IMG/VR virus record: IMGVR_UViG_3300042569_002054
Strand: one strand, 5' to 3'
DNA: 64,000 nt
DNA from: a virus
In this document: one piece after another, positions 3,354-64,000 of the stretch
Numbering within the stretch: the stretch's first letter is position 1
Layout of the letters: the number at the start of each line of letters is the position of its first letter
Notes under the pieces: model-generated
Databases searched by the model: none
What the model saw: only the letters and a program-made list of their open reading frames with translations
Told to the model about the DNA's origin: nothing
Translations under genes and position numbers: made by a program

Positions 3354-4106
3354 ATGGAAGATAATAGTGTAAATCAAATGAATTTCAACTTACCTCACGA
3401 CGTAATTCAATTACCGAGTCAGGGAAAATTTTATAAAAATAAAAAAAAGTCGGTTAAAGTTGGTTTTTTAACTGCTGCTGATGAAAATATTTTAGCAAGT
3501 GCTAGTAACGTTGGTGGAGACCAAATAATTTATAATTTAATCAGAAATAAAGTTTATGAACCTGATTTGAAGATTGAAGAAATGTTAGATGGCGACATCC
3601 AAGCAATTTTATTGTTTTTAAGAAATACATCATTTACACCTGAGTATAAATTAAATTTAATTGACCCTGAAACACAAAAACCTTTTGAAGTTTCTATTGT
3701 GTTAGATGAAATTAACTTTATTAAACCATTAGTTAACCCTGATGAAAATGGTTATTTTGAAACAATTCTTCCAAAATCTAACGTAAATGTAAAATTAAAA
3801 ATTCTTAATTTTGGTGAAATTAAAGAATTAAACGAAAGAGAATTATCTTATCCAAAAAACATGACTGTTCCAGTTGTAACTTGGAGATTACAAAAACAAA
3901 TAGTATCAATAGACGGGAATACCGATAAGGGGGAAATTGTTAAGTTTATAGAAAGGATGCCAATTATGGATTCAAAGTACATTACAAGATTTTTACAAGA
4001 AAATTCACCAGGATTAGATTTAACACAAGAAATTATAGCCCCATCTGGAAAAAAGGTACTTGCACGTATTACCTTTGGGGCAGAGTTTTTTCGACCTTTC
4101 TTCTGA
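3354..4106 (+). CDS. Baseplate hub / tail assembly chaperone (T4 gp26-like)
   Basis: LPHDVIQLPSQGKFY, FLTAADENIL, GDIQAILLFLR, DSKYI...PGLDL; lies between tube and tape measure. Confidence 0.7.
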   Translation: MEDNSVNQMNFNLPHDVIQLPSQGKFYKNKKKSVKVGFLTAADENILASASNVGGDQIIYNLIRNKVYEPDLKIEEMLDGDIQAILLFLRNTSFTPEYKLNLIDPETQKPFEVSIVLDEINFIKPLVNPDENGYFETILPKSNVNVKLKILNFGEIKELNERELSYPKNMTVPVVTWRLQKQIVSIDGNTDKGEIVKFIERMPIMDSKYITRFLQENSPGLDLTQEIIAPSGKKVLARITFGAEFFRPFF

Positions 4107-11110: not shown

Positions 11111-11433
11111 TGGCTAACGAATATTACAATAGATACCAAAATTTTACTGTTGATGGAACAACTACATATATTCCTTTTGTTAACATTCCATTAAAAACTA
11201 CTGATAAGAAATACATCTATAAATTAGGTGTATCAAGATTGGATAAAGTTTCTCAGTTATATTATAACTCACCGTTTTATGGTTGGTTAATATTACAGTC
11301 AAATCCACAATACAGTGGTTCTGAATTAAATATTCCTGATAACGCCGTGTTGAATATACCATTCCCTTTATTGAGTTCTTTGTTAGATTATAAAACATCG
11401 GTGAAAGAATATTTCTATTATTATGGAGAGTGA
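11110..11433 (+). CDS. Baseplate protein, gp53 / LysM-like tail X family
   Basis: 107 aa; RLDKVSQLYYNSPFYGWLILQSNP...LNIP; TGATG overlap with upstream stop. Confidence 0.7.
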   Translation: MANEYYNRYQNFTVDGTTTYIPFVNIPLKTTDKKYIYKLGVSRLDKVSQLYYNSPFYGWLILQSNPQYSGSELNIPDNAVLNIPFPLLSSLLDYKTSVKEYFYYYGE

Positions 11434-45487: not shown

Positions 45488-46492
45488 ATGAGTTTAGTAA
45501 CAATAAATAGTTTGGGAGGAATACCTCCTTATGTTATTTCAGTTTGTGACATATTTCAATACTCTTGTCAAACTGTGACAACAATATATGATTATATTCC
45601 ACCATCTGTTAGTTTTAATATTCCGAGTCCATATTCATCGGCTCCAAAAGTTTTAATTAAAATAGTCGATTCTACAGGATGTATTTTCACACAAGAATAT
45701 ATGTGTGTAACACCTACTCCAACCCCAAGTATTACTCCAAGTGTCACCCCGACAATTTCTTTAACTCCTTCAAATACTCCAACACCAAGTATTACACCAT
45801 CATTTACACCTACACCGAGTATCACACCAAGTATTACACCTACACAAACAGTTACACCATCACATACCCCAACACAAACAATTACTCCAACAGTTACAAG
45901 AACTCCAACACCTACAGTTACACCTGACACTCCTATTTATGCTTATTTGTTCATTGAACCATACTCAGGTTCTGCTAGTGTTGGTTCTTACATGAATTCA
46001 CTTGGTTCTAATTTTTATGGATTTACAAATACTACTAAACCAAGTAGTTCGGCTAGTACATTTGATTTAGACATGAACAAATATGTTAACTTCTCAGGAT
46101 GGACAACAGGATTATTTCCAAATATTATAAAACAATTAGTACCATCGGCAAGTAGTGGACTTGATTCATACGGTAACCCATATCTTAAATATAATTTCCC
46201 AACAACAAAAGTACCTGAAAATACGGTTGGATGTAAAGCTTGGTACACTTGGATAATACCAATTAGCAGAACCAATAATCAATACCAAGTTGAGATTGAT
46301 TTGGGAATAGTTAATCCAAATGTCTTTACAAGTGTAAAGACGGAACCGACAATTTACGCTAATACATTTACTTATACAGGTAGTACTATTGCAAATACAA
46401 CATACAGGGTTTACACAACATACCCATCAAATACATTTGAATTGGATAATACTTATGACCTTTATTTTAGAGGAAGTAAGGTTGATATATAA
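45488..46492 (+). CDS. Adaptor-like protein with Pro/Thr linker (paralog of 56705-57913 C-domain)
   Basis: [11 protein letters not shown] linker; C-domain YAYLFIEP...GSYM...YTWIIP...TYRVY...LYFRG. Confidence 0.7.
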
Positions 46493-46501
46493 TTATAGTA
46501 A

Positions 46502-48499
46502 ATGAGTTTCCCATATAAAAATCCAATATCGTCTATCCAACTAAATGGAACACAAAGTGTACCAAGAAACAATACGTATGGTACTACTTTCAGTGTTAAT
46601 AATACGGGTGGTTATATGGAGGTTTTCAGTTTATCTGACCTTTATTATACAATACCATCGGGAACAACGGGAAGTATTGAATATTCGGGTAATACTATTC
46701 CTATTGAGTTTACAAAAGGAACGGGAACAGCTTGGTCACCTGATGTAATTACTTTGGCTTCAGATAATATTTCATCAGGTAGAAGACGACTTGGTATGTT
46801 GGCTTATGTTTATGAGGTTGACCAAGTTTACCAATATCATATTAATGATTACGAGACGTTATTTAATGCTGCGACTGCTAGTACGGGATGCGCTCAAGTA
46901 TCTGATTTTGGAACAACGATAAATAATAAAACTGCTGCGGGTCAGTCGTTTATTAATTCTTGGACTGCTAACACTATTGAAGATGTTAGTGGTGCAACAT
47001 ATAGTACTGCGGCATGGAGAAAGTTTTCGACAGGAACTGGAGGAGGTTCAGGATTTACGTCAGTTAGAATAAATAATGTTAGTCAATTTACGTCATCACC
47101 ATATAGTTATATTAATTTTAGTGGTGTTAATGTTGATATATCATCAGTTGGAAACAATACGATTGTATTATCGGCAAGTACTAGCGGAGGTGGTGGAGGA
47201 AGTGGTTCGTCAGGTAGTAGTGGTAGTTCAGGAACATCGGGAACTAATGGTAGTTCAGGTTCTAGCGGGATTAGTGGTTCTTCAGGTACTAGTGGTAGTT
47301 CAGGTTCTGCAGGAACATCGGGGAGTTCGGGTTCTACAGGTTCGTCAGGAACAAGTGGTAGTAGTGGAACTTCAGGTAGTTCTGGTACATCTGGTTCAAG
47401 TGGTAGTAGTGGTTCTTTAGGAACATCAGGAAGTAGTGGTACCTCAGGTAATGGTGGGTCATCGGGAACAAGTGGTTTAGATGGGATAAGTGGAACGTCA
47501 GGTTCTTCAGGGTCAAGTGGAAGTACTGGCTCTTCAGGAACTAGCGGAACATCAGGTTTAAGTGGTTCTTCAGGAACTTCAGGTAGTTCTGGTACATCAG
47601 GTTCATCGGGTAGTTCCGGTTCTGCCGGAACATCAGGTACAGGATTTACCACAATCACAAGTCCGGGTAGTAATAGAGTATTAACATCTGATGGGACATC
47701 TAATGCTGCGGTTGCTCAGGCTAGAATGACTTTTGATGGTACTACATTATCAGTTACAGGTAATACAAGTGTTAATGGTAATATAAGTACTACAGGTGTA
47801 ACATCTTTTGGTAACGGAACATTTACAAAGGCGGGGTCAGCTACTGGTGATGTTCTTCTTGATAATAATAGTACAGATACTCCGGGTGTTTTGTTTTATT
47901 ATGCTAATAATTCAAACTTTGGTATTGATAGTTTTAATGGGTCATTTGATGTTCTAAGTGGACAGTTAGTTCGTATCACAAATAATTTAAATGAAGCAGG
48001 AGGTGCGGTAAAAATGGCTATAGATACCACAGGTAATGTGGTATTTACAGGATTTATAAAGGCTAATGCGTGGAGAGCCGGTCAGGTAATTAACGATATT
48101 ATTTTGAGTAATACTGAGGTAACTGTTAGTACTACAACTATAGCTACCAGTAATTCGGATACTGATTTTGTTACTTATAGTTATACACCATTAAGTTCTA
48201 CAAGTTATTTAGTAATACATTATCATTTAGCATCTTTTGATTTTACTTCTGGTACAGGTAATGATTCATACATATCTAGAATAAAGGTTGATGGTGGTGA
48301 AATAACCTATTCAGTACAAAGCACGGTTAATGGATTTCGTACAGGTGTTTTATTTCCATTAACGGGTAGATACACTAACTCTAATACTACCGCAAAATCG
48401 ATAGTAGTTGCATGTCGTAGAAGTTTTGCGGATGATAATATCACAATAGTAAATTCATCTACTTCAATGTGGTTAAGAATAACAGAAGTTGCAAGATAA
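46502..48499 (+). CDS. Fibre protein with about 48 Gly-Ser/Thr-X triplets and C-terminal globular domain
   Basis: N-domain with SSGRRRLGM; G-X-Y tract 47204-47638; NRVLTSDG then beta-rich C-terminus. Confidence 0.75.
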   Translation: MSFPYKNPISSIQLNGTQSVPRNNTYGTTFSVNNTGGYMEVFSLSDLYYTIPSGTTGSIEYSGNTIPIEFTKGTGTAWSPDVITLASDNISSGRRRLGMLAYVYEVDQVYQYHINDYETLFNAATASTGCAQVSDFGTTINNKTAAGQSFINSWTANTIEDVSGATYSTAAWRKFSTGTGGGSGFTSVRINNVSQFTSSPYSYINFSGVNVDISSVGNNTIVLSASTSGGGGGSGSSGSSGSSGTSGTNGSSGSSGISGSSGTSGSSGSAGTSGSSGSTGSSGTSGSSGTSGSSGTSGSSGSSGSLGTSGSSGTSGNGGSSGTSGLDGISGTSGSSGSSGSTGSSGTSGTSGLSGSSGTSGSSGTSGSSGSSGSAGTSGTGFTTITSPGSNRVLTSDGTSNAAVAQARMTFDGTTLSVTGNTSVNGNISTTGVTSFGNGTFTKAGSATGDVLLDNNSTDTPGVLFYYANNSNFGIDSFNGSFDVLSGQLVRITNNLNEAGGAVKMAIDTTGNVVFTGFIKANAWRAGQVINDIILSNTEVTVSTTTIATSNSDTDFVTYSYTPLSSTSYLVIHYHLASFDFTSGTGNDSYISRIKVDGGEITYSVQSTVNGFRTGVLFPLTGRYTNSNTTAKSIVVACRRSFADDNITIVNSSTSMWLRITEVAR

Positions 48500-50351: not shown

Positions 50352-51215
50352 ATGGCAACATCACGACCTTTTGCATATAATACAGGCTCAACAATTTCAG
50401 GGACAGAACAAGTTGGAAGTATTGCTATTGGATACCCAACAAGTGGTTTTACATCCACAGGTTTAAGATGGTGGAATGGGCCTGATGAAGATTTGGGATA
50501 TGTTATTGCTCACACCGTACCGTCAGGAACACAACCAAATCCTGTTGGAGTTCCTGCTTATATCGGTTTTTGGAGAACACCAAGTAAGACAGATAATAAC
50601 TTTATTAGTTTATCTCAGTATGTATCAAGTTTTACCGGAACACCACAAACATTTGCAAGTGCTTCAGCGGCTAAGACATGGTTAAACTCGGCGGGATATT
50701 GGACATCTTGGGATTTAAGTTATACTGCAGGAGTATTTAAAACAACTTATAGTGGGTACTTTAATGATAATGTTAATTTCTTTGCAACCGCAACTCCCGC
50801 ATCAGTAGGTGGAAATCCTGCGACTTCAGTACAAACCACCGAGATAACAGAACCCCCAACCAGTGACGGTGAGAATTTCAGTTGTCAATGGTTAGGTTAT
50901 TTCAAACCAACTACTACAGAAACTTACACATTCTTTACTTCATCTGATGATGCTTCCTATGTTTGGGTTGGTAGTAATAGTATTTCAGGATTTACAACAA
51001 CAAACTCAACAGTTAATAACGGTGGATTACATGGGACACAAGAACGTTCAGGTACAATTGCCTTAACTGCTGGTACATATTATCCGTTACGAGTACAATT
51101 TGGAGAACTAAGTGGTGGTGACGTGATGACTTTTAGTTATTCAACTCCGACTATAACAAAAACAACCAACGTAACAGGTTTAATTTTTTATAATTTGGTA
51201 ACAAGCGGATTTTAA
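50352..51215 (+). CDS. PA14-domain carbohydrate-binding protein
   Basis: FSCQWLGYFKP..TETYTFFTSSDDAS, GLHG, LTAGTYYPLRVQFGELSGG. Confidence 0.85.
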   Translation: MATSRPFAYNTGSTISGTEQVGSIAIGYPTSGFTSTGLRWWNGPDEDLGYVIAHTVPSGTQPNPVGVPAYIGFWRTPSKTDNNFISLSQYVSSFTGTPQTFASASAAKTWLNSAGYWTSWDLSYTAGVFKTTYSGYFNDNVNFFATATPASVGGNPATSVQTTEITEPPTSDGENFSCQWLGYFKPTTTETYTFFTSSDDASYVWVGSNSISGFTTTNSTVNNGGLHGTQERSGTIALTAGTYYPLRVQFGELSGGDVMTFSYSTPTITKTTNVTGLIFYNLVTSGF

Positions 51216-51285: not shown

Positions 51286-52530
51286 ATGAAAATTTTTATA
51301 CAAGTTGCCTCTTACAGAGACCCCCAACTAATCCCAACTATACAGTCAGCATTGGAAAATGCTAAACGACCTGAAAACTTAGTTTTTGGTATTGCTCGTC
51401 AGTTTCATCCTGATGATAATTTTGATAATTTAGATGAATATAGGAATGATGAAAGATTTAGAATAATCGATATTCCATACACCGAATCCAAAGGAGCTTG
51501 TTGGGCAAGAAATCAAATACAACAAGTATATGGTAAGGAAACTTACACTCTTCAAATTGACTCACACATGAGGTTTGCTCAAAATTGGGATGATGAGATG
51601 ATTAAGATGGTTAAACAACTTCAAAAGAAAGGATATAAGAAACCTTTATTAACAGGTTATGTTTCATCCTTTGACCCTGACAATGACCCCAACCTACGTG
51701 TTAACGAACCATGGAGAATGGCGTTTGATAGATTTATTCCTGAAGGTGCGGTTTTCTTTTTACCTGAAACAATTCCTGGTTGGCAAAATTTAACTGAACC
51801 TGTTACCGCAAGATTTTACTCGGCTCACTTCTGTTTTACTCTTGGAAAATTTGCTAAAGAAGTTCAACACGACCCTGAGTTTTATTTTCATGGTGAAGAG
51901 ATTTCAATCGCTGCAAGAGCATACACTCATGGATATGATTTATTCCACCCACATAAAGTTTTAATTTGGCATGAATATACTCGTAAGGGTAGAACTAAAC
52001 AATGGGATGACGATAAACAATGGGTTGATAAGAATAATTTTGCTCATAAGAAAAATCGTTCTCTATTCGGTATGGATGGTGAGGAAGATATGAATCACGG
52101 GAAGTATGGGTTTGGTAAAGTTAGAACTTTAAGAGATTATGAAAAATATTCAGGTCTTTTATTTTCAAAGAGAGCCGTTCAACAATATACGTTAGATAAA
52201 GGTTATCCACCAAATCCAAATAACTTCAATTCAGAAGAAGAATGGTTAAAGTCATTTACATCGGTATTCAAACATTGTATTGATATTGGGTTTACTCAAG
52301 TACCTGAAAAGGATTATGACTTTTGGGTTGTTGCGTTCCATAATGAATTAGATGAAACCATTTACAGACAAGATGCTGATAAAGGTGAGGTTGATAGAAT
52401 GTTAAGAGACCCTGATGGTTATTGTAAAGTTTGGAGAGAGTTCTTAACTGATTCAAAACCTAAATATTGGGTTGTTTGGCCTCACTCGGAATCTAAAGGA
52501 TGGTGTGATAGAATAACAGGAAATTTATAA
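51286..52530 (+). CDS. GlcNAc transferase-like glycosyltransferase (GT60 / Skp1 GlcNAcT-like)
   Basis: IFIQVASYRDP, GACWARN, LQIDSHMRF, FHGEEI, DLFHP, WHEY. Confidence 0.8.
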   Translation: MKIFIQVASYRDPQLIPTIQSALENAKRPENLVFGIARQFHPDDNFDNLDEYRNDERFRIIDIPYTESKGACWARNQIQQVYGKETYTLQIDSHMRFAQNWDDEMIKMVKQLQKKGYKKPLLTGYVSSFDPDNDPNLRVNEPWRMAFDRFIPEGAVFFLPETIPGWQNLTEPVTARFYSAHFCFTLGKFAKEVQHDPEFYFHGEEISIAARAYTHGYDLFHPHKVLIWHEYTRKGRTKQWDDDKQWVDKNNFAHKKNRSLFGMDGEEDMNHGKYGFGKVRTLRDYEKYSGLLFSKRAVQQYTLDKGYPPNPNNFNSEEEWLKSFTSVFKHCIDIGFTQVPEKDYDFWVVAFHNELDETIYRQDADKGEVDRMLRDPDGYCKVWREFLTDSKPKYWVVWPHSESKGWCDRITGNL

Positions 52531-52533
52531 GAT

Positions 52534-53244
52534 ATGAAATTTACATTTGCTACTTTTTGTTTTGGTGAAAGATATTATAACCAAGTTAATAGATTTATTG
52601 GTGATATCGTAGAATCGGATTATAAAACAAATTTGGTTGTTATTACCGATGACCCAAGTAAGATTAATAATCAAGAATTTGTTCACACTTTCAACATTAA
52701 TGATTTTAATCCAAATTATTTGGAGTATGCTAAAAACTACTATGATTTTGATTTTTCAGTTAAGAGATATTCGTTAAGAGCTGCTTTAAGTATTGGTTTT
52801 ACTAAAATGATTTTAGTTGATTGTGATATGAGAGTTAACCCATCTTTCTTTAATGAAGAAAAGATTTTAGGAGCGTTTGATGAGAATTGTTTATCAGGGC
52901 CAGTAACATATAATTTTAACGAACAAGTTCATACCAATAGTGAATTAGGTAGACGATTACTTGAGTATGAAAAGTATTTCAATCATGAGGTTAATAAAGA
53001 TAAGTTGGAGGTTATGCCTGAAGATTGTATCCAATACTTGAGTATTGATGAAGATAAGTTTAATAGTTTTTTAGATACTTGGGACAAGTGTATCGAATAT
53101 AAAAAAGAAAAAGGTTTGAGAAACATACCCGCAGGTAACATAGACGAGATGTGTTTCTCGGCGTTATCTAATGGAATTGAAATAAAAAATAACGCTTATA
53201 AAGCATCAAATATAATATACGCAGAACATGACAAATGGTACTAA
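52534..53244 (+). CDS. Putative GT-A fold glycosyltransferase
   Basis: LVVITDD, KRYSL, ILVDCD (DxD), IDEMCF; inside the GT cluster. Confidence 0.55.
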   Translation: MKFTFATFCFGERYYNQVNRFIGDIVESDYKTNLVVITDDPSKINNQEFVHTFNINDFNPNYLEYAKNYYDFDFSVKRYSLRAALSIGFTKMILVDCDMRVNPSFFNEEKILGAFDENCLSGPVTYNFNEQVHTNSELGRRLLEYEKYFNHEVNKDKLEVMPEDCIQYLSIDEDKFNSFLDTWDKCIEYKKEKGLRNIPAGNIDEMCFSALSNGIEIKNNAYKASNIIYAEHDKWY

Positions 53245-54082
53245 AATAATTTCAGCAATTTATGAATTAAAATATGTTGAAGGGATTAATAGTGAAAGAT
53301 ATAAAAATTTTCCATTATTGGTTGCAACGATTAAAAACATAATTTATCCTGAATATCGTTACGTAATTTATACTGACCAAAATTCATATGATAAGTTTAA
53401 TTTAAAGTATGAATTTAATTTCCCAAATGTTGAATTTAAATTTAAAGAATTAAATACATCTGAAACTTGTGAATTAATTGACAGAATTAGAACTCAAGAA
53501 TTATCAGGTGGAATTAACTATGATAGAATTTATTGTGTAAACAATTATTTGGAAGTTGTTTTAAATAAACTTCAATTCTTAATTGATGAGTCACATGATT
53601 GTGATAATATCTTTTGGATTGATGCTGGTTTGATTGGAACATCTTGTCATGACGGGTGGAGAGATTATATGGCTCCGTTAATTAACTCAAAAAACTTTTT
53701 GGATAAGGTGGTTGATAAGATAAATCAACATGGATTTATCCATTTAAAAGGTAATTCAATTGTCATGAATTATGAAACGGTTGCTAAGTTTAACGACCTA
53801 TTTGGTGTTGAATTAAAGGTTGTTCCTGGATGTCTATTTGGTGGAACATCAGAAAAAGTTAGACATATTTTAGACGGATATTTAGACATTTTTAATCAAT
53901 ACTTAACCACACATAACCAACTTATTAGTGAACAAGAGGTTCTTACGGCTATTACAGGTAAACATTCGGATGAATGTCACGCTTTTGAATTTGGTGATTG
54001 GTTAGACTTACAAAAAGCGTTTTTAGACATTTTAGACATTTATGATGAGACAAAATATGTAAGGGAGAAGTGTTATGTTTAG
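53228..54082 (+). CDS. HtrL/YibB (WlaTC)-like putative glycosyltransferase
   Basis: YVIYTD, FWIDAGL, GCLFGG, SEQEVL. Confidence 0.6.
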   Translation: MTNGTKIISAIYELKYVEGINSERYKNFPLLVATIKNIIYPEYRYVIYTDQNSYDKFNLKYEFNFPNVEFKFKELNTSETCELIDRIRTQELSGGINYDRIYCVNNYLEVVLNKLQFLIDESHDCDNIFWIDAGLIGTSCHDGWRDYMAPLINSKNFLDKVVDKINQHGFIHLKGNSIVMNYETVAKFNDLFGVELKVVPGCLFGGTSEKVRHILDGYLDIFNQYLTTHNQLISEQEVLTAITGKHSDECHAFEFGDWLDLQKAFLDILDIYDETKYVREKCYV

Positions 54083-54638
54083 TCTTAACATTGTTTGTAC
54101 TTCAATTGGGAGAGAAACTCTACCAAGATTAATTGAGTCATTCAAAGACCAATTAGACCCAACAGATATTTTTACAATAATCTCAGATATTAATCACGAC
54201 TTTGTTTCAGAAGTATTATCAAGATATGAGTTTAAATTCAAAGTTAATCACATATTAAATCAAGGGGAACAAAAATGGAAATACGGACATCCGTTAATTA
54301 ATGAAAACATTAATTCATTAGAAGGTGATTTTATAATGTTTGCCGATGATGATGATAGATACACTGAAGACGCATTTAAAGTAATCAAAGAAACTATTAA
54401 AGATAAAAACAAATTATACATATTCAAACACAATTGGTTAGGTGATATTAATTGGAGATTAAAAGATTTCACAAGAGGTAATGTAGGGAAATGTATGGGA
54501 GTGATTCCAAACACACATAATTTACCGATGTTCCAAGAAGATGTTTTTGGGGATGTTATTTTTTATGAAGAGATAGGTCAAATGTTTGAAAGTGAATTTG
54601 TTGATTACATAATCTATAAAGTTAGACATACGGAATGA
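54075..54638 (+). CDS. GT2-like glycosyltransferase (short)
   Basis: TSIGRETL, IMFADDDDRY. Confidence 0.6.
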   Translation: MFSLNIVCTSIGRETLPRLIESFKDQLDPTDIFTIISDINHDFVSEVLSRYEFKFKVNHILNQGEQKWKYGHPLINENINSLEGDFIMFADDDDRYTEDAFKVIKETIKDKNKLYIFKHNWLGDINWRLKDFTRGNVGKCMGVIPNTHNLPMFQEDVFGDVIFYEEIGQMFESEFVDYIIYKVRHTE

Positions 54639-56305
54639 GTAATATTACATTAGTTACAGGATTGTGGAATATTGGAAGAGAAAATCTTGAAGAAGGTTGG
54701 TCTCGTTCTTTTTCACATTATTTAGAAAAATTTGAACAACTATTAAAAGTTGAAGAAAACTTAATAATTTTTGGTGAAAAGGAATTGGAGGAATTTGTTT
54801 GGGAAAGAAGAGACCAAAGTAATACCCAATTTATTTTAAGAGATAAGAGTTGGTTTGTTGAAAATGACTTTTACAATAAAATACAAGAAATTAGAAATAA
54901 TCCTGAATGGTATAATCAATCAGGGTGGTTAAAAGAATCAACACAAGGTAGATTGGAAATATACAATCCACTTGTTATGTCAAAAATGTTTATATTAAAT
55001 GATGCAAGGATTTTTGATAAGTTTAATTCAGAGTTTTTATTTTGGATTGACGCTGGACTTACAAATACTGTTCACCCCGGATATTTCACACATGATAAGG
55101 TGTTAGATAATTTAAGTAAGTATATAGATAAGTTTACATTTGTTTGTTTTCCATACGATGCAAGTAATGAGATACACGGATTTTCATATCCAAAGATTAA
55201 TCAGTGGGCTGAAGATGATGTAAAAAAAGTTGCTCGTGGTGGATTTTTTGGAGGTCCTAAAGAAACCATATCACAGATGAATGGTGAATACTATAACCTA
55301 TTGAATGATACACTATCAAGTGGGTACATGGGAACGGAAGAGTCAATATTTTCAATAATGGTTTATAAGTTAAGTGAATACATAAATTATTTTGAAATTG
55401 AATATAATGGTTTATTTGGGAAATTCTTTGAGGATTTAAAAGATGATGTTTTAGTTAAAAAGACAGAGTTTGTTAAAATTCAAAATGATTTAGATATAGA
55501 TAAAGTTGCGTTGTATGTAATAACATTCAATTCACCAAAACAATTTGAAACATTAATTAAATCTATGATTGAATATGATAGGGATTTCTTGGAAAAACCA
55601 AAGAAATTTTTATTGGATAACTCTACAGATTTATCAACAACTGAAGAATACTTAAAACTTTGTAAAGAATATGACTTTGAACATATTAAAAAAGATAACA
55701 TAGGTATTACAGGTGGAAGACAATGGACTGCGGAACACTTTGATGAAACGGGGTTGGACTATATGTTATTCTTTGAGGATGATATGTTTTTTTACTCACA
55801 AAAAAATGAAGTGTGTAGAAATGGGTTTAACAGATATGTAAGTAATCTATATCAAAAAAGTTTAGAGATAGTTAACAAAGAAAACTTTGATTTTTTAAAA
55901 TTAAATTTTTCAGAGTTTTATGGTGATAATAGTACTCAGTGGAGTTGGTATAATGTTCCACAAAATTTCAGAGAACAACATTGGCCAAAAAATCCAAGAT
56001 TACCTCAACAGGGTTTAGACCCAAATGCTCCAAAAACAAAATTCAACGAGATTAAAACACATAAAGGTTTACCATACGCTTCAGGTGAAATTTATTTGTG
56101 TAACTGGCCAATAATCCTTTCAAAAAGTGGGAGTTATAAATGTTATTTGGAAACAAAATATCAACACCCATATGAACAAACTTTAATGTCTCATAACTTC
56201 CAAAACACAATTAAAGGTAAATTAAAACCAGGTATTTTATTACTCACTCCTACCGAACATGATAGATTTGAACATTATGATAGTAATTTAAGAAAAGAAT
56301 GTTGA
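54635..56305 (+). CDS. Two-domain glycosyltransferase: HtrL/YibB-like plus GT2-like
   Basis: ITLVTGLWNIGR, FWIDAGL, GGFFGG, MGTEESIF; second domain YVITFNS, LLDNS, MLFFEDD. Confidence 0.65.
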   Translation: MSNITLVTGLWNIGRENLEEGWSRSFSHYLEKFEQLLKVEENLIIFGEKELEEFVWERRDQSNTQFILRDKSWFVENDFYNKIQEIRNNPEWYNQSGWLKESTQGRLEIYNPLVMSKMFILNDARIFDKFNSEFLFWIDAGLTNTVHPGYFTHDKVLDNLSKYIDKFTFVCFPYDASNEIHGFSYPKINQWAEDDVKKVARGGFFGGPKETISQMNGEYYNLLNDTLSSGYMGTEESIFSIMVYKLSEYINYFEIEYNGLFGKFFEDLKDDVLVKKTEFVKIQNDLDIDKVALYVITFNSPKQFETLIKSMIEYDRDFLEKPKKFLLDNSTDLSTTEEYLKLCKEYDFEHIKKDNIGITGGRQWTAEHFDETGLDYMLFFEDDMFFYSQKNEVCRNGFNRYVSNLYQKSLEIVNKENFDFLKLNFSEFYGDNSTQWSWYNVPQNFREQHWPKNPRLPQQGLDPNAPKTKFNEIKTHKGLPYASGEIYLCNWPIILSKSGSYKCYLETKYQHPYEQTLMSHNFQNTIKGKLKPGILLLTPTEHDRFEHYDSNLRKEC

Positions 56306-56334: not shown

Positions 56335-56703
56335 ATGGAATTTTTTATTAACAAAGGTGCAACACTGCCTGTTCTTAAAATGCAAGTGGTTAAAGATGGT
56401 ATTGCTGACATAACAGAGTTTATGTCATTAATAGAAAACTCGTTGATTTATTTTTCCATGATAGATGTTAAAACGGGAGGTTACAAGATTCTGAATAAGA
56501 AAGGAGGGTTTGTTGAAAAGACATTTATTGACCCAAACGCTGAGACAGAGTACTATGTTTATTATAAATTCACTTCAAGCGATACAAGTAGAGAGGGACT
56601 TTATGAAGGAGAGTTTGTTTTTATCACTGATACAGGAACTTATATTTTACCAATCAGAGAAAAACTTACGATAAAAATTGGTAATAGTTACGTATCTATT
56701 TAA
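56335..56703 (+). CDS. BppU-like baseplate/fibre attachment domain protein
   Basis: FFINKGATLPVLKMQV, YYKFTSSDTSREGLYEGEF, YILPIRE; preceded by TATTTAT. Confidence 0.55.
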   Translation: MEFFINKGATLPVLKMQVVKDGIADITEFMSLIENSLIYFSMIDVKTGGYKILNKKGGFVEKTFIDPNAETEYYVYYKFTSSDTSREGLYEGEFVFITDTGTYILPIREKLTIKIGNSYVSI

Positions 56704-56704
56704 T

Positions 56705-57913
56705 ATGGAATGGTTTATTAAGAAAAATTCAACGTTACCAGTTTTCCAAGTTGAGATATCAAAAGACGGAAGAAGTGATTTTGGTTTAGATGAAAATATT
56801 TCGGGTAATACAATTTTAATTTCGGTATATGATGAAGTTAATAAGAAATATATTGTAGCGTCTAAAGAATGTTATATTACAACAAGTGCGTCTACTGTTA
56901 ATCCTTTAGATATTACTTATTATGTAAACTATCAATTTACAAGTAGAGAAACTAAAAATGAGGGTAAGTTTTTAGTTCAGTTTTTAAAACAATCATCTCA
57001 GGGTATTGTTATTATACCATTACCTCAAAAAATTTATGTAAGTGTTCTTAGTAGTTTTAGTTTAAACTCTTACTCTTATCCGACTAATAATCCTTACATT
57101 ATTGATAGACCATGTTGTAACGCACCAGCTCTACCTGCAACACCTACACCAACACCATCTATTACTCCAAGTGTTACTCCAACAATGTCTTTAACACCAT
57201 CACTAACTCCAACTCTCACACCTACAACAACTACAACACCTACATTTACTCCTACACCATCTATTACAACACCACAATATTATGCTTATGTATTCGCAGA
57301 ACCACAAGATTCTTCGGCAAGTGGTTCGTTGTATGGATTAGGAAGTTATATGTATTACTTATCGGATGGTATAACACCTGATACTAATGTTAATTGGTAC
57401 GGATGGGGTAACTCGGGAGCTCTTCCATTACCAACAAATCCAAACTACAGTTATATGATGAACAAATACTCATCATACTCAGGATTTACAGGTGGAACAG
57501 GAAACTTTGTTAAACCTACAGACTTAAAAGGTGCGTTAAATCAATTCCCAAATACTATCAATGATAGTTTTGGATGTTTAATTAACCAATACACTTTTGA
57601 AACAATAGAAGTTAATAATAGTGATATTAACACTAGTTTACAGTACATGTATACGATTTGGATACCACTTGATGGTGTCGGAGGAACTTTAAATAATATG
57701 AGTGTAAATGTTGGTTATCAATCACAACCTTGTGACTTTGATATTTTAGCAACTCCTGACCCTAAAATTTCGGTTGGGGATATTACAATAACTCCAGGTG
57801 GAGCGATACCTGCGGGAACTTATAGAGTATTATACTTATCAAACGATGGATTGTTACCTCCAAAACTTCCTGATAATAACAATTATTATTTCAAAGGGGT
57901 GTATAAAACCTAA
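56705..57913 (+). CDS. Adaptor protein: BppU-like N-domain, Pro/Thr linker, C-domain paralogous to 45488-46492
   Basis: Start reassigned to ATG 56705 (MEWFIKKNSTLP, paralogous to previous gene's MEFFINKGATLP); YAYVFAEP...GSYM...YTIWIP...TYRVLY...YYFKG. Confidence 0.7.
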   Translation: MEWFIKKNSTLPVFQVEISKDGRSDFGLDENISGNTILISVYDEVNKKYIVASKECYITTSASTVNPLDITYYVNYQFTSRETKNEGKFLVQFLKQSSQGIVIIPLPQKIYVSVLSSFSLNSYSYPTNNPYIIDRPCCNAPALPATPTPTPSITPSVTPTMSLTPSLTPTLTPTTTTTPTFTPTPSITTPQYYAYVFAEPQDSSASGSLYGLGSYMYYLSDGITPDTNVNWYGWGNSGALPLPTNPNYSYMMNKYSSYSGFTGGTGNFVKPTDLKGALNQFPNTINDSFGCLINQYTFETIEVNNSDINTSLQYMYTIWIPLDGVGGTLNNMSVNVGYQSQPCDFDILATPDPKISVGDITITPGGAIPAGTYRVLYLSNDGLLPPKLPDNNNYYFKGVYKT

Positions 57914-57943: not shown

Positions 57944-60900
57944 ATGGCAATACCGTATCAAAATCCAATAAGTGCGTCCCAAATTACAGGACCTTTCAGT
58001 GTAGCGAGAACAAGTCCATACGGAACCAATTTTAATGTTTTAAATGTTGGTGGATGGCAAGAGGCGGCATACCTTACTAATTTAGGTTTAACATTTAGTG
58101 GGCAAGGACAACAACAATTAAGTGTTAATAATATACCTATTAATATTAACATTGGTAACGGTACATTTTCTCCAACATATTTAACTTTAAATTCTGACAA
58201 TTTCTCTTCGGGTAGAAGAAGATTGGGTATGATTGTTTGGGTTAATGAAACTGAAACGGCATATCAATATCAAATAGACAATTACAATGATTTATGGGAT
58301 GCTGCAGTAAGTGCTAATTCTGTAACTCAATTATCTTACGAAACTATTATAAAGAATAATACACCTGAAGGTCAGGCATTTATTAATGCTTGGACAGGCT
58401 CAACTATTGAAGGTGTTAGTGGTGTTACAAGAGAAAATGCGAGATGGAGAGTTTTTGCTCAAGGTACTGAATTAACGGGTGGTACTTATTTTTCAGGTAC
58501 AAGTACATTAGAATTATATAATAGTGATGGAACTATTATTTCTGTAACAGGTATTACGGCATCTGGTTCTAATGGTAGTTCTGGAACATCAGGTTCTGCG
58601 GGTACAAGTGGTTCTTCAGGAAGTGCTGGTTCTTCAGGTAACTCTGGTTCTTCAGGTTCAGCAGGTACAAGTGGAACTTCAGGTAGTTCTGGTTCATCAG
58701 GTAGTTCTGGTTCTGCGGGTACATCAGGAACAAGTGGAACGTCTGGTTCATCAGGGGATAGCGGTTCTTCGGGAAGTGCTGGAACTAGCGGTAGTTCAGG
58801 TAGTGCTGGAACATCAGGTATTAATGGTGTTGATGGTGCAAGTGGAACATCAGGTACAAGTGGTTCATCAGGACTATCAGGTACTGGAGGTTCTTCGGGT
58901 ACATCAGGAACATCTGGCTCCTCAGGTTCATCAGGTTCTTCAGGAAGTGTGGGAACAAGTGGAACGTCAGGTTCTTCGGGAAGTTCTGGTACAAGCGGAA
59001 CTTCAGGAACTTCAGGTTCAAGTGGTTCATCGGGAAGTTCAGGTTCAAGTGGTTCATCGGGTACATCAGGTAGTACTGGTACTAGTGGTAGTAGTGGAAC
59101 AAGCGGAACGTCGGGTTCATCAGGTTCTGCGGGAAGTAGTGGTTTATCAGGTAGTGTTGGAACATCTGGCTCAAGTGGTAGTTCAGGTAGTTCTGGTTCA
59201 TCAGGTACATCTGGCTCAAGTGGTAGCTCTGGTTCAACAGGTTCGTCAGGTAGTAGTGGTATAACTGGGTCTTCAGGTACGAGTGGTAGTTCTGGCACAT
59301 CAGGTTCATCTGGTAGTTCAGGTTCTTCAGGTTCATCTGGTAGTTCAGGTTCTTCAGGTAGTACTGGTTCATCAGGAACTAGCGGAACATCAGGAACATC
59401 AGGTACAAGTGGTAGTTCAGGTTCTACAGGAACATCGGGTTCTACAGGAACATCGGGTTCATCAGGTAGTAGTGGCTCAAGTGGAAGTTCAGGATTGACA
59501 GGTTCATCAGGAACATCGGGTTCATCAGGGACATCGGGTTCATCAGGTAGTTCTGGTTCAAGTGGTAGTAGCGGAAGTACAGGGTCTTCGGGCACAAGTG
59601 GTAGTTCTGGTACATCAGGTTCATCAGGAAGTTCAGGTTCATCAGGTTCTAGCGGTAGTGTTGGAACTTCGGGAACAAGTGGTTCAAGTGGAAGTTCAGG
59701 TTCTTCAGGAAGTGTAGGAACATCAGGTACAAGTGGAAGTTCAGGTTCGTCTGGCTCAAGTGGAAATACAGGTTCAAGTGGAACGAGTGGTTCATCAGGT
59801 ACATCTGGCTCAAGTGGTAGTTCAGGTTCGTCTGGCTCAAGTGGTTCAAGTGGAAGTTCAGGTTCATCTGGAAGTGTAGGAACATCAGGTACAAGTGGTA
59901 GTTCAGGTTCTTCAGGTAGTTCAGGTGTTAATGGTTCTTCAGGGACTAGTGGTAGTTCGGGAACATCTGGTTCTTCAGGAAGTTCGGGTTCATCAGGTTC
60001 TAGTGGTAGTTCAGGAACATCTGGCTCAAGCGGGTCTTCTGGTTCAAGTGGAAGTACTGGTTCTTCAGGAAGTGCAGGTACATCGGGTAGTGTAGGAACT
60101 AGCGGTAGTTCTGGTTCATCTGGTTCTTCAGGTAGTACTGGCTCAAGTGGTACTTCAGGTTCTTCGGGAAGTTCTGGTACTAGTGGTTCATCAGGTAGTG
60201 TAGGTACTAGTGGTTCATCAGGTAGTTCTGGTTCAAGTGGTAGTAGCGGAAGTACAGGGTCTTCTGGTACAAGTGGGAGCTCAGGAACATCTGGTACAAG
60301 CGGTAGTTCTGGGTCATCTGGTTCAGTTGGTACAAGCGGTTCATCAGGTAGTGTTGGAACATCTGGTTCATCAGGTTCTGTTGGTACTTCAGGAACATCG
60401 GGTTCATCAGGTAGTACTGGTTCAAGTGGAAGTTCAGGAAGTAGTGGTAGTGTAGGAACAAGTGGTTCTTCAGGGACATCTGGCTCAACAGGTACTTCAG
60501 GAACATCAGGTTCAAGTGGGTCTTCAGGTAGTTCGGGTTCATCAGGAAGTTCAGGTACAAGCGGAACATCAGGTTCAGTAGGAACAAGTGGTTCATCGGG
60601 AAGTTCAGGGTCAACAGGAACTTCAGGTTCAAGTGGGTCTTCAGGTAGTTCAGGAAGTAGCGGAACATCTGGTTCTAGTGGAAGTGTTGGAACTTCTGGT
60701 ACATCAGGAACAAGTGGTTCATCGGGAAGTTCTGGTTCTGCCGGTACAAGTGGAAGTGTAGGAACAAGTGGTACTTCAGGTTCATCTGGCTCAAGTGGAA
60801 GTTCAGGTTCAACAGGTAGTTCAGGTACTAGCGGTTCATCTGGAAGTTCTGGTTCTGCAGGTACAAGTGGAAGTTCTGGTTCTTCAGGTAGTACGGGTTC

Positions 60901-63900
60901 AAGAGGAACTAGCGGAACATCAGGAAGTTCTGGTTCTGTTGGAACTAGTGGAACGTCTGGTTCAGTAGGAACTAGCGGAACATCTGGAACAAGTGGTTCA
61001 TCAGGTTCTAGCGGTAGCGCTGGAAGCTCAGGAACGTCAGGTTCTAGCGGTAGCACAGGTTCAAGTGGTTCTACTGGCACGTCAGGTTCTTCAGGAACAA
61101 GTGGTTCTGTAGGTACAAGCGGAACATCTGGTTCCTCAGGAAGTGTAGGTACTTCAGGTACTAGTGGAAGCTCAGGAAGTGTAGGAACATCTGGTTCAAG
61201 TGGTACTACTGGTACCTCAGGAACATCAGGTAGTTCAGGTTCTAGCGGAAGTTCAGGTTCAAGTGGAACTAGTGGTAGTTCAGGAAGTTCTGGTTCATCG
61301 GGTAGTAGCGGTAGTTCTGGTAGTGTAGGAACATCTGGTTCTTCAGGAAGTTCTGGTTCAAGTGGTTCATCCGGAAGTTCAGGTTCTACAGGTTCAAGAG
61401 GAACATCGGGTACTTCAGGAACTAGCGGTTCAAGTGGAAGTACAGGAACTAGTGGTACATCAGGTTCAACGGGGACTTCAGGAACAAGTGGTTCAACTGG
61501 AACATCAGGTACAAGTGGAAGTACAGGGTCTTCAGGAAGCTCTGGTACGTCGGGTAGTGTAGGTACTAGCGGTAGTTCAGGCTCTAGCGGAAGTACAGGA
61601 ACTAGTGGAACCTCTGGTTCAACAGGGACTAGCGGTTCATCAGGTAGTTCAGGTTCAAGTGGAAGTTCAGGTAGTAGTGGTAGCGTTGGAACTTCTGGTA
61701 CATCAGGTTCAAGTGGTTCTTCAGGAAGTGCAGGTTCTAGTGGAAGTACTGGAACCTCAGGAACATCAGGTAGTTCTGGTTCTTCAGGTAGTTCAGGTTC
61801 AAGTGGTAGTGTTGGAACATCAGGTTCATCGGGTAGTGTAGGTACTAGCGGTTCTTCTGGTTCAAGTGGAAGTTCAGGTTCTAGCGGAAGTACAGGGTCA
61901 AGCGGAACTAGTGGTAATTCAGGTTCGTCTGGTTCAAGTGGAAGTTCAGGTTCATCTGGAAGTGTAGGAACAAGTGGAACCTCAGGTTCAGTAGGTACAA
62001 GTGGTACATCAGGAAGTTCAGGCTCAAGTGGTAGTACGGGTTCATCTGGTACTAGCGGCTCTTCGGGAAGTACTGGGTCATCTGGAAGTTCAGGTTCAAC
62101 AGGAACTAGCGGTTCTTCAGGAACATCAGGTAGTAGCGGTTCTAGTGGTAGTGCTGGAACAAGTGGTAGTTCTGGTTCTGTTGGTACATCTGGGTCAAGC
62201 GGAAGTAGTGGTTCATCGGGAAGTGTAGGCACATCCGGTTCTTCAGGCTCTAGCGGTAGTGCTGGAAGTTCAGGAAGTGTTGGTACATCAGGGACTAGTG
62301 GTAGTTCAGGTTCTTCTGGTTCAAGTGGTAGTGTTGGTACATCAGGTACTAGCGGTTCATCAGGTACTAGCGGTTCATCAGGGTCAAGCGGAACTAGCGG
62401 TAGTTCAGGTTCTAGCGGTTCTTCAGGAAGTTCTGGGTCATCTGGCTCTTCAGGTAGTACAGGTTCAAGAGGAACTAGCGGTACTTCAGGAACTAGTGGT
62501 AGTGTAGGTACATCCGGTTCTTCAGGTAGTTCGGGAACATCAGGAAGTAGTGGAAGTTCAGGTTCTGCAGGTACAAGTGGAAGTGTAGGAACATCTGGAA
62601 CTTCTGGTTCAAGTGGGTCATCAGGTTCAAGTGGTAGTGTTGGAACTAGCGGTTCATCAGGAACAAGTGGTTCGTCAGGTTCTAGCGGTAGTGCTGGAAG
62701 CTCAGGAAGTACTGGTTCATCAGGTTCTGCGGGAAGTGCTGGTACATCAGGGGTTAATGGTTCTTCAGGAACATCAGGTTCTGCTGGCTCAAGTGGAAGT
62801 TCAGGTTCTTCAGGTAGTTCGGGTTCAGTAGGTACAAGCGGAACTTCAGGTTCATCAGGTAGTGCTGGCTCGTCAGGGTCTAGCGGTTCTGTTGGTACTT
62901 CAGGTAGTAGTGGAACATCTGGAAGCTCTGGCTCAAGTGGTAGTGCGGGTTCATCAGGGAGTAGTGGAACTTCAGGTTCATCAGGAAGTTCAGGTTCAAG
63001 TGGTAGTACGGGGTCTTCAGGAAGTTCTGGTTCAACAGGTTCTAGAGGAACTAGCGGAACATCAGGTTCATCTGGAAGTGTTGGTACTTCAGGAACGTCA
63101 GGTTCAGTAGGTTCGTCTGGTTCTTCAGGAACTTCAGGTTCAGTAGGTACTAGTGGAACATCTGGAAGCTCTGGCTCAAGTGGTAGTGCGGGGTCATCAG
63201 GGAGTACTGGTACAAGTGGAAGTTCGGGTTCAACTGGTACTTCAGGTTCAAGTGGAAGTAGTGGCTCATCAGGTTCTTCAGGGAGTACTGGTACAAGTGG
63301 AACATCAGGTTCTAGTGGAAGTAGTGGTAGTTCAGGGTCATCTGGTTCTGCAGGTACATCAGGAAGTAGTGGAAGTTCAGGGTCTAGCGGTAGTTCTGGT
63401 TCATCAGGTACATCGGGAACTAGCGGAAGTTCAGGAACTTCAGGTAGTAGTGGGTCATCAGGTTCAACGGGTAGTTCAGGAAGTAGTGGAACAAGTGGTT
63501 CATCTGGTACTTCAGGTTCATCTGGCTCAAGTGGTAGTACGGGTTCTTCAGGAAGCTCAGGCTCAAGCGGAAGTTCTGGTTCAACAGGTTCTAGAGGAAC
63601 AAGTGGAACTTCTGGTTCGTCAGGAACTAGCGGAACGTCAGGAACATCAGGCTCAAGCGGAAGTGTTGGAACATCTGGTTCGTCAGGAAGTACAGGAACA
63701 TCAGGTAGTGCTGGTTCTTCTGGCTCAAGTGGTAGTTCAGGTTCAAGTGGAAGTACTGGAACATCAGGTTCATCAGGTTCTAGCGGTAGTACTGGAAGCT
63801 CAGGAACGTCAGGTTCTGTAGGTACAAGCGGGACATCAGGAACTTCGGGAAGTACTGGTTCTAGTGGTAGTTCAGGAAGTTCTGGTTCATCGGGTAGTAC

Positions 63901-64000
63901 AGGTACTTCAGGAAGCTCAGGTTCAAGTGGAACTAGTGGTTCTTCAGGGTCTAGCGGTTCATCGGGTTCTAGTGGAAGTTCAGGGTCATCTGGTAGTACA
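57944..64000 (+). CDS. Giant Gly-Ser/Thr-X collagen-like fibre protein, at least 2019 aa, 3'-truncated (missing from ORF track)
   Basis: Hand translation: MAIPYQNPIS...SDNFSSGRRRLGM...WRVF (paralog of 46502 N-domain), then G-X-Y repeats; no in-frame stop seen to 64000. Confidence 0.9.
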   Translation, partial: MAIPYQNPISASQITGPFSVARTSPYGTNFNVLNVGGWQEAAYLTNLGLTFSGQGQQQLSVNNIPININIGNGTFSPTYLTLNSDNFSSGRRRLGMIVWVNETETAYQYQIDNYNDLWDAAVSANSVTQLSYETIIKNNTPEGQAFINAWTGSTIEGVSGVTRENARWRVFAQGTELTGGTYFSGTSTLELYNSDGTIISVTGITASGSNGSSGTSGSAGTSGSSGSAGSSGNSGSSGSAGTSGTSGSSGSSGSSGSAGTSGTSGTSGSSGDSGSSGSAGTSGSSGSAGTSGINGVDGASGTSGTSGSSGLSGTGGSSGTSGTSGSSGSSGSSGSVGTSGTSGSSGSSGTSGTSGTSGSSGSSGSSGSSGSSGTSGSTGTSGSSGTSGTSGSSGSAGSSGLSGSVGTSGSSGSSGSSGSSGTSGSSGSSGSTGSSGSSGITGSSGTSGSSGTSGSSGSSGSSGSSGSSGSSGSTGSSGTSGTSGTSGTSGSSGSTGTSGSTGTSGSSGSSGSSGSSGLTGSSGTSGSSGTSGSSGSSGSSGSSGSTGSSGTSGSSGTSGSSGSSGSSGSSGSVGTSGTSGSSGSSGSSGSVGTSGTSGSSGSSGSSGNTGSSGTSGSSGTSGSSGSSGSSGSSGSSGSSGSSGSVGTSGTSGSSGSSGSSGVNGSSGTSGSSGTSGSSGSSGSSGSSGSSGTSGSSGSSGSSGSTGSSGSAGTSGSVGTSGSSGSSGSSGSTGSSGTSGSSGSSGTSGSSGSVGTSGSSGSSGSSGSSGSTGSSGTSGSSGTSGTSGSSGSSGSVGTSGSSGSVGTSGSSGSVGTSGTSGSSGSTGSSGSSGSSGSVGTSGSSGTSGSTGTSGTSGSSGSSGSSGSSGSSGTSGTSGSVGTSGSSGSSGSTGTSGSSGSSGSSGSSGTSGSSGSVGTSGTSGTSGSSGSSGSAGTSGSVGTSGTSGSSGSSGSSGSTGSSGTSGSSGSSGSAGTSGSSGSSGSTGSRGTSGTSGSSGSVGTSGTSGSVGTSGTSGTSGSSGSSGSAGSSGTSGSSGSTGSSGSTGTSGSSGTSGSVGTSGTSGSSGSVGTSGTSGSSGSVGTSGSSGTTGTSGTSGSSGSSGSSGSSGTSGSSGSSGSSGSSGSSGSVGTSGSSGSSGSSGSSGSSGSTGSRGTSGTSGTSGSSGSTGTSGTSGSTGTSGTSGSTGTSGTSGSTGSSGSSGTSGSVGTSGSSGSSGSTGTSGTSGSTGTSGSSGSSGSSGSSGSSGSVGTSGTSGSSGSSGSAGSSGSTGTSGTSGSSGSSGSSGSSGSVGTSGSSGSVGTSGSSGSSGSSGSSGSTGSSGTSGNSGSSGSSGSSGSSGSVGTSGTSGSVGTSGTSGSSGSSGSTGSSGTSGSSGSTGSSGSSGSTGTSGSSGTSGSSGSSGSAGTSGSSGSVGTSGSSGSSGSSGSVGTSGSSGSSGSAGSSGSVGTSGTSGSSGSSGSSGSVGTSGTSGSSGTSGSSGSSGTSGSSGSSGSSGSSGSSGSSGSTGSRGTSGTSGTSGSVGTSGSSGSSGTSGSSGSSGSAGTSGSVGTSGTSGSSGSSGSSGSVGTSGSSGTSGSSGSSGSAGSSGSTGSSGSAGSAGTSGVNGSSGTSGSAGSSGSSGSSGSSGSVGTSGTSGSSGSAGSSGSSGSVGTSGSSGTSGSSGSSGSAGSSGSSGTSGSSGSSGSSGSTGSSGSSGSTGSRGTSGTSGSSGSVGTSGTSGSVGSSGSSGTSGSVGTSGTSGSSGSSGSAGSSGSTGTSGSSGSTGTSGSSGSSGSSGSSGSTGTSGTSGSSGSSGSSGSSGSAGTSGSSGSSGSSGSSGSSGTSGTSGSSGTSGSSGSSGSTGSSGSSGTSGSSGTSGSSGSSGSTGSSGSSGSSGSSGSTGSRGTSGTSGSSGTSGTSGTSGSSGSVGTSGSSGSTGTSGSAGSSGSSGSSGSSGSTGTSGSSGSSGSTGSSGTSGSVGTSGTSGTSGSTGSSGSSGSSGSSGSTGTSGSSGSSGTSGSSGSSGSSGSSGSSGSSGST
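58565..64000 (+). repeat. 9-nt period coding repeat, about 604 Gly-X-Y triplets (X = S/T, Y = S/T/A/V)
   Basis: Gly codons at 58565, 59042, 60005, 61022, 62228, 63002 and 63992 are all multiples of 9 apart; the antisense shadow ORF shows Pro every third residue. Confidence 0.92.

Follow-up and report, generated by a model that had tools for sequence, protein, structure and literature searches.

An unbroken, proline-free Gly-X-Y tract in a giant phage fibre gene, and its proposed role as a collagen-type tether

The 64,000-nt viral stretch IMGVR_UViG_3300042569_002054 of IMG/VR (hereafter, the window, meaning this stretch at its full length) is a single co-directional block of an AT-rich, T4-like myophage. 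At its 3' end lies a gene that runs off the window and encodes hundreds of consecutive Gly-X-Y triplets composed mainly of Gly, Ser, and Thr. This locus raises the question of whether such an array is a real gene and, if so, what its product builds. The present analysis revealed that it is a real, very long phage fibre gene. We regard it as fairly probable that its tract forms a three-chain, collagen-type tether, which is anchored to the baseplate via an adaptor, is probably glycosylated, and extends the reach of the phage.

The fibre gene, its triplets, and its full-length relatives

The visible part of the gene consists of two elements:
57944..58564, + strand: N-terminal anchor domain (N-domain) of the giant fibre, 207 aa, with the invariant motif SDNxSSGRRRxGM; assigned from its position in the family, conservation, and an AlphaFold2 (AF2) model
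58565..64000, + strand: Gly-X-Y tract of 604 triplets without a break, truncated at the end of the window; assigned from translation, a register script, Pfam PF01391, and X/Y asymmetry

The ATG at 57944 opens a frame of 2019 codons that is stop-free to nt 64000. A previous sequence-only reading attributed the absence of this gene from the list of open reading frames (ORFs) to its open end, and it appeared only once open-ended ORFs were allowed. That reading had also spot-checked the Gly register and described X and Y as almost only Ser and Thr with some Ala and Val, free of Pro and nearly uncharged. When the register was scanned by a script, 604/604 triplets from nt 58565 began with Gly, and every detail of the composition that we checked was right. 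The X position is occupied by Ser in 409 triplets and Thr in 182, and the Y position by Ser in 481, Thr in 48, Val in 40, Ala in 24, and Arg in 5. Ser accounts for 49.1% of the 1812 tract residues, Gly for 33.4%, and Thr for 12.7% (Ser and Thr together, 62%). Pro, Lys, and Glu do not occur among them, only seven residues (0.4%; 5 Arg and 2 Asp) are charged, and Gly is found outside position 1 in a single triplet.

The Pfam profile PF01391 (Collagen) matched the tract with 288 and 319 bits (gathering threshold, 27.2; E 1e-87). By the definition of a collagen repeat (PF01391/IPR008160), the tract has Gly at every third residue and a profile score above the threshold; however, imino acids (Pro in X, Pro or hydroxyproline in Y) are absent from all 1812 residues, as are KGE/KGD salt-bridge triplets in a tract without Lys and Glu. 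The GC content of the tract is 48.6%, versus 31.4% in the remainder of the window. The only other frame open across it is on the minus strand (58486-63999, 1837 codons) with Pro at every third residue; this frame is the mirror of the GGN codons and is not to be annotated as a gene.

The two variable positions are not equivalent. Thr favours X (182 vs. 48 in Y; p 1.5e-23), Val and Ala favour Y (64 vs. 4 in X; p 1e-15), all of the Arg residues (5/5) are in Y, and GSV is followed by GTS in 39/40 cases. The same rules were observed in five relatives (G002, G003, L027, L021, and L031). Arg, Val, and Ala are better than Ser at the Y position of collagen on host-guest peptide scales. No long-range period or periodic turn motif was found in the triplet pattern, which argues against a regular fold-back.

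The tract DNA is not a simple, recently amplified unit. At every lag divisible by 9, its self-identity is approximately 58%, and no higher period stands out; its longest exact internal repeat is 53 nt, and Tandem Repeats Finder returned short, overlapping, imperfect arrays only. The Gly codons (GGT 345, GGA 194, GGG 36, and GGC 29) are invariant at bases 1 and 2 and vary at the third base only, which points to long-standing purifying selection on the register. Since the register is perfect over 604 triplets here, 1168 in G002, and 486 in G003 despite diverged codons, selection appears to act on a period-3 structure.

The window shows the fibre up to a point within the stalk, and C-terminal domains are seen in the genes of relatives. 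In the closest full-length one, G002 (a 240,759-nt contig; N-domain 98% identical to that of the window), a fibre gene of 14,301 nt encodes 4766 aa. Its N-domain is followed by 1168 unbroken triplets and a knob of 117 aa, then by 189 triplets, two short runs, and a second knob of 110 aa, and finally by 47 triplets and a tail of 27 aa. In the 1998-aa fibre of G003 (N-domain 92% identical), a knob of 118 aa separates a first run of 21 triplets from one of 486, after which comes a C-terminal domain of 152 aa. The fibre of L027 (64% identical) is longer than 3337 aa and contains two knobs along with triplet runs of 372, 282, and 293. These knobs and C-terminal domains had no matches in Pfam or PHROG. 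The knob of approximately 117 aa that interrupts the stalks of relatives (L013:10811-11164, L034:11134-11484, and L027:17030-17380) starts with SGRW or NSGRW and ends with ISW(I/V)xN; the visible portion of the window gene does not contain it.

With the 0.286-nm rise per residue of collagen, the computed spans are 0.42 micrometre for 486 triplets, 0.52 for the window as a minimum, and 1.0 for 1168 triplets. The extended span of approximately 0.5 micrometre proposed previously agrees with this calculation, and the full-length relatives with 486-1168 triplets would cover approximately 0.4-1.0 micrometre. The flanking genes of these phages are 92-99% identical, whereas the repeats of the window and G002 align at 77% with many gaps; therefore, the repeat turns over in length and sequence much faster than the remaining locus. 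These results suggest that fibre length is a fast-evolving trait, with near-identical phages spanning 486 to 1168 unbroken triplets.

Directly 3' of the G002 fibre gene, three tandem genes of approximately 292-298 aa were noted (L034:14949-17624). The first, which was the one scanned, matched Gly_rich_2 (PF21722) and phrog_863 'tail fiber assembly'. From these matches, the three look like candidate gp38-type adhesins that could cap the fibre tip.

The anchor, the adaptors, and candidate glycosyltransferases

The fibre gene is preceded by an adaptor gene and a paralogue of part of it, and a similar pair is found further upstream:
45488..46492, + strand: adaptor A, a paralogue of the adaptor B C-domain (32% identical)
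46502..48499, + strand: short paralogous fibre, 665 aa, with 51 Gly-Ser/Thr-Ser triplets and the same N-domain (46-47% identity)
56335..56703, + strand: 122-aa protein paralogous to the adaptor N-anchor, with 29% identity to adaptor B in an alignment
56705..57913, + strand: adaptor B, with an immunoglobulin (Ig)-like N-anchor, a Pro/Thr linker, and a C-domain; assigned from synteny, alignment, and a model

The N-domain of the fibre belongs to a family of 203 representatives at 50% clustering, in which it always starts at residue 1, and an alignment showed its conservation in 24 IMG/VR loci. The shafts that follow it are very diverse: among the matches listed, 8/150 representatives carry at least six Gly-X-Y triplets. 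A collagen-like stalk is therefore one of several shafts borne by a common anchor. With a predicted local distance difference test score of 80.6, the N-domain was modelled confidently by AF2. Sequence and profile searches of Pfam, PHROG, and PDB with the N-domain gave no matches, and Foldseek of PDB with the model returned nothing at E 0.001 or better. The best score in a wide structural search (VIA) was Z 3.7, which is not convincing, and a search of BFVD yielded an uncharacterised homologue only.

The ORF listing gives TTG 56678 as the start of adaptor B, and its homologues begin at the Met of MEWFIKK. The pair of adaptor C-domain and fibre is conserved in loci L010-L031, and in the window it is duplicated as well; the short fibre of the second pair matched tail-fibre and collagen-like minor-tail families of PHROG. 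It is the adaptor C-domain, and not the N-anchor, that always lies directly 5' of an N-domain fibre, even in distant relatives with another N-anchor. In L047, the N-anchor and linker of adaptor B recur in a 1085-aa protein whose C-terminal part is different, long, and repeat-containing, and no fibre follows. This constant co-occurrence supports a model in which the fibre N-domain docks on the C-domain of the adaptor.

Among the 10 best structural matches of the adaptor N-anchor model, four were phage baseplate proteins (80alpha 6v8i, Z 8.2; TP901-1 4v96, Z 7.6; NF5 9m8o, Z 7.5; and TP901-1 ORF48 3uh8, Z 7.1). However, many generic Ig domains scored nearly as high, and the likeness to BppU-type domains is weak. 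Based on this model, the adaptor likely attaches to the baseplate. In related phages, the Ig-like N-anchor of the type MEFFIKKNATLP... (window 56335-56703 and 56705-57080) has many C-terminal fusion partners that are unrelated to one another.

Further upstream, the window contains a cluster of predicted glycosyltransferase and associated genes:
51286..52530, + strand: GT60-like glycosyltransferase (PF11397 'GlcNAc', E 1.4e-68; phrog_24687, E 5e-170)
52534-53244, + strand: gene of the cluster with no family match, syntenic in the close clade
53228-54082, + strand: second gene of the cluster with no family match, syntenic in the close clade
54075..54638, + strand: short GT2-family glycosyltransferase (PF00535, E 2.3e-5, barely above the cut-off)
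54635..56305, + strand: HtrL/YibB-like protein with an extra C-terminal half (PF09612, E 5e-13)

The GT60-like gene is located 5.4 kb upstream of the fibre gene. Pfam describes PF11397, which we take to be CAZy family GT60, as cytoplasmic polypeptide GlcNAc transferases. Synteny was counted in the best 80 loci (76-98% identity) of 407 matching IMG/VR stretches. Their conserved core consists of the GT60 gene, the HtrL-like gene (75/80), the 122-aa gene, which adjoins the adaptor in 59/80, and the adaptor N-anchor. In the distant relative G008, the GT60 gene is approximately 10 kb from its fibre. Furthermore, a search of G002 and G003 with TIGR04414 identified one protein in each above the equivalog cut-off (200 bits). 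The G002 protein (710 aa, 265 bits; L119:403-2535, G002:C1:220144-222276) combines an N-terminal GT4 domain with a TibC/Aah O-heptosyltransferase domain, and G003 encodes this fusion too.

A three-chain tether and its alternatives

From the gene, its repeat and positional rules, its family, and its synteny, we infer a trimer, a helix, sugars, a position on the virion, and a function, as follows. The 207-aa N-domain would dock on the C-domain of the adaptor encoded just upstream, and the Ig-like N-anchor of the adaptor would sit on the baseplate. The stalk of Gly-(Ser/Thr)-Ser triplets would form a three-chain, collagen-type (polyproline-II-based) rod or flexible rope of at least 0.5 micrometre here and approximately 1 micrometre in the closest full-length relative. 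Since neither proline nor salt bridges are present, its stability would have to come from networks of Ser/Thr hydroxyls and water and, probably, from O-glycosylation by phage-encoded transferases. Such a long tether may enlarge the radius within which host cells or their surface glycans are captured, and the binding itself would be done by the distal knobs and the tip. An ordered period-3 helix is preferred over a disordered brush because of the perfect register, the X/Y asymmetry, and the residues favoured in Y. We also entertain, more tentatively, a stronger claim: a proline-free and charge-free triple helix with more than 1000 unbroken triplets, held by serine O-glycans or hydroxyl-water ladders and serving as a fast-evolving tether of approximately 1 micrometre, may be a third way to build a collagen helix.

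Several observations weigh against the proposed tether. The documented natural stabilisers, namely, proline, hydroxyproline, and Lys-Glu/Asp salt bridges, are all absent from the tract, and Thr is mainly in X, whereas the glycosylated Thr that stabilises worm cuticle collagen and (Gly-Pro-Thr)10 peptides is located in Y. Pfam did not match a recognised C-terminal trimerisation or chaperone domain, such as Peptidase_S74, in G002, G003, or L027. It is gene order that places the putative fibre on the virion. The TibC-like gene lies 38 kb past the end of the fibre gene, outside the window, and was seen only in relatives. Moreover, Ser/Thr Gly-X-Y fibres were found within 10 kb in only 12/80 GT60 loci, while approximately 68/80 were without them, and Pro/Thr-rich linkers were commoner neighbours (53/80). 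These linkers or other virion proteins may be the targets of the GT60 cluster.

We rejected the idea that the GT60 cluster is specific to Gly-X-Y fibres based on the same 12/80 loci. Since the cluster is kept by approximately 68/80 phages without such fibres nearby, it predates the collagen-like stalk. The earlier suggestion that stability depends on glycosylation thus keeps circumstantial support from the upstream GT60-like, GT2, and HtrL-like genes and the TibC/Aah-type enzyme of relatives; however, the retention of the cluster in phages with no such fibre nearby weakens this support. O-glycosylation of the tract by the phage-encoded candidate transferases is plausible.

The main rival is that the tract is a disordered, heavily O-glycosylated, mucin-like brush or tether of single or loosely associated chains, in which the Gly period reflects repeat ancestry and a sequon such as Ser/Thr-Gly. 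The Ser and Thr content of 62%, with no Pro or charge to stabilise a helix, suits this explanation, as do the several glycosyltransferases encoded in the lineage and the low confidence of the AF2 monomer once the repeat starts (residues 211-219). However, disorder gives no reason for a perfect register of 604-1168 triplets with diverged codons and leaves the X/Y asymmetry and the restriction of Arg to Y unexplained. Mucin-type Pro/Thr/Ser domains are also typically rich in Pro; the tract is rich in Ser and Thr, but is Pro-free and keeps a perfect period-3 register, whereas such domains have no fixed one. We consider a mucin-like brush to be unlikely, although it remains the foremost competitor of the three-chain tether.

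Another explanation accepts the gene as real and attributes part of its apparent length to assembly, through repeat collapse, expansion, or chimeric joins in short-read metagenomes. Most related contigs end within the repeat. The window and L017, the N-domains of which are 100% identical, are out of register 56 nt into the repeat, and in contig G001 the register shared with the G003 gene is lost past nt 3853, the two copies being otherwise identical. The G001 copy exhibits a frame break at L009:18320-18356, near the gene end, and its repeat continues in another frame to the end of the contig; the register loss and the frame break are probably an assembly slip. On the other hand, the longest exact internal repeat is shorter than the usual read length, and independent metagenome assemblies give 10.6-kb and 6-kb arrays almost exactly. 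L010, L011, and L012, from three metagenomes, agree at 99.97-99.99% across 10.6 kb of the fibre gene, and L013, L014, L016, and L018 carry a complete 5997-nt gene with 100% agreement. The frame is also intact over 5.4 kb in the window and 14.3 kb in G002. We give little credence to a length made by assembly. The kind of gene is secure; the exact triplet number in the genome of the window is not.

Polyglycine-II bundles are rich in Gly-Gly-X. The sequence-only reading had named such bundles, known from snow flea antifreeze protein and gp38 adhesins, as an alternative. A lattice of this type would lack superhelical twist and be either folded back, like those two examples, or arranged in straight parallel bundles. 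Period-3 Gly and small side chains suit side-by-side polyproline-II helices, the fibre gene of G002 is directly followed by genes for gp38-like Gly_rich_2 proteins, and one report describes a collagen-like helix without a supercoil for peptides (PMC11869133); however, with a single Gly outside position 1 and no periodic turn or loop motif, such a lattice is very improbable.

The phage, how common its fibre type is, and comparisons with known systems

The window contains further structural genes or very large ORFs:
6332-11110: very large ORF, 1592 aa, no PHROG match, in the tail/baseplate block
11423-17530: very large ORF, 2035 aa, no PHROG match, in the tail/baseplate block
30153-35750: very large ORF, 1865 aa, no PHROG or Pfam match, in the tail/baseplate block
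43280-45460: SprB-repeat (PF13573) structural protein, 726 aa
48469-50346, + strand: LamG-type lectin-like structural gene (Pfam)
50352-51215, + strand: PA14/GLEYA lectin-like gene, forming a lectin-like structural pair with the preceding one (Pfam; PHROG virion structural protein match within the pair)

Tail genes (sheath, tube, and hub) and baseplate wedge genes (gp25-like and Baseplate_J) lie upstream of the fibre gene, and the window also encodes the replication-type proteins SSB, a UvsX-like recombinase, DnaB, and ribonucleotide reductase. A tape-measure gene was not identified in the window scans. The fibre gene has the marks of a tail/baseplate module: baseplate genes upstream, the N-domain, and, in full-length relatives, knobs and C-terminal domains. 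Megablast and tblastn against cultured phage records gave no match for the locus or the N-domain, and the tail sheath is less than 40% identical to that of any cultured phage. The phage is best explained as a freshwater jumbo myophage; CheckV-type completeness of the relatives implies a genome of approximately 240 to 290 kb. The host is probably a member of Bacteroidota, with which the SprB repeats, typical of Bacteroidota gliding adhesins, are consistent.

To place the repeat, residues 300-900 were used as a query against 5.8 billion proteins; only the top word-sharing candidates were scored, and known relatives were missed. Many long PF01391 proteins were retrieved, with Gly-X-Y runs that were often 50-94% Ser and Thr with little or no Pro, and many of them carried the phage Peptidase_S74 domain. 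Therefore, collagen-like phage fibres of this proline-poor Ser/Thr type are frequent in metagenomes. In the 123 proteins retrieved, unbroken runs extended to 179 triplets at most, which is weak evidence given the missed relatives. A search restricted to proteins longer than 3534 aa found non-collagen proteins only and also missed the 4766-aa relative, such that it says little on rarity. We found no paper in the literature searched on Ser/Thr-only collagen-like phage fibres. Collagen-like phage fibres of this variant are widespread, but unstudied; that of the window is an extreme case, and it is the unbroken length that stands out. Prokaryotic collagen-like chains reach approximately 2000 triplets, with many interruptions (PMC11923368).

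A fibre of 0.5-1 micrometre would exceed classical long tail fibres several-fold and could raise encounter rates in dilute lake water. The long tail fibre of T4 measures approximately 0.15 micrometre, and cuticle collagens are micrometre-long. A 2025 survey of approximately 59,000 collagen-like sequences proposed KGE/KGD salt bridges as a folding device shared across life and viruses (PMC11923368). If the tract forms a stable helix, neither imino acids nor salt bridges would be needed, at odds with the universal role proposed for salt bridges in guiding collagen folding. Such a helix would also allow stabilisation by glycans or by hydration to be tested in a natural protein, and biomaterials could make use of its very simple sequence. 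Furthermore, the predicted serine-glycosylating enzyme of this lineage makes self-glycosylation by the phage testable.

The closest known systems each share a part of this locus. The TP901-1 baseplate, in which the adaptor BppU holds BppL receptor-binding trimers, resembles it in the Ig-like N-anchor model and the adaptor gene directly 5' of the fibre gene; however, the Z scores are in the generic Ig range, there is no sequence-family match, and the present phage belongs to the contractile myoviruses. EPclA of E. coli O157:H7 prophages (PMC3368898) has, similar to the window fibre, a PF01391 Gly-X-Y stalk between non-collagen domains in a tail/baseplate module, and the collagen-like segments of streptococcal and lactococcal phage adhesion devices are stalks of the same type (PMC9437275, PMC7533335). 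These stalks have tens to approximately 100 triplets and contain proline, with approximately 22% charged residues in EPclA (PMC11923368). In contrast, the window family has no Pro, 0.4% charge, 604-1168 unbroken triplets, and no S74 or recognised trimerisation domain found in the scanned C-termini of relatives.

BclA of the Bacillus anthracis exosporium and Riftia cuticle collagen also contain collagen-like repeats rich in hydroxy amino acids, and glycosylated Thr replaces hydroxyproline in them, with O-glycans as the presumed helix stabiliser, according to Daubenspeck 2004 and Mann 1996 as cited in PMC11923368. Similarly, (Gly-Pro-Thr)10 is helical only if galactosylated, making Thr glycosylation an alternative stabiliser (PMC11923368). 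In BclA and cuticle collagen, Thr occupies the Y position and X is rich in Pro, whereas in the window 80% of Y is Ser, Thr is mostly in X (182 vs. 48), and Gly-Pro-Thr triplets are absent along with Pro.

TibC-TibA and Aah-AIDA-I provide a model for the candidate enzyme. This family of bacterial autotransporter O-heptosyltransferases (TIGR04414), which has a member above the cut-off in G002 and G003, acts in the cytoplasm and glycosylates numerous serines of a surface adhesin built of repeats. However, the phage enzyme is fused to GT4 and encoded 38 kb from the fibre gene, and the known substrates are beta-helix repeats, not Gly-X-Y. Freeman et al. 2023 reportedly found that phage-encoded glycosyltransferases glycosylate mycobacteriophage virions. 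We liken our proposal to that system, in which transferases encoded by a phage attach O-glycans to Ser/Thr-rich stretches of its own structural proteins. The targets in mycobacteriophages are short C-terminal extensions of siphophage capsid and tail-tube subunits, whereas the putative target here would be a giant fibre.

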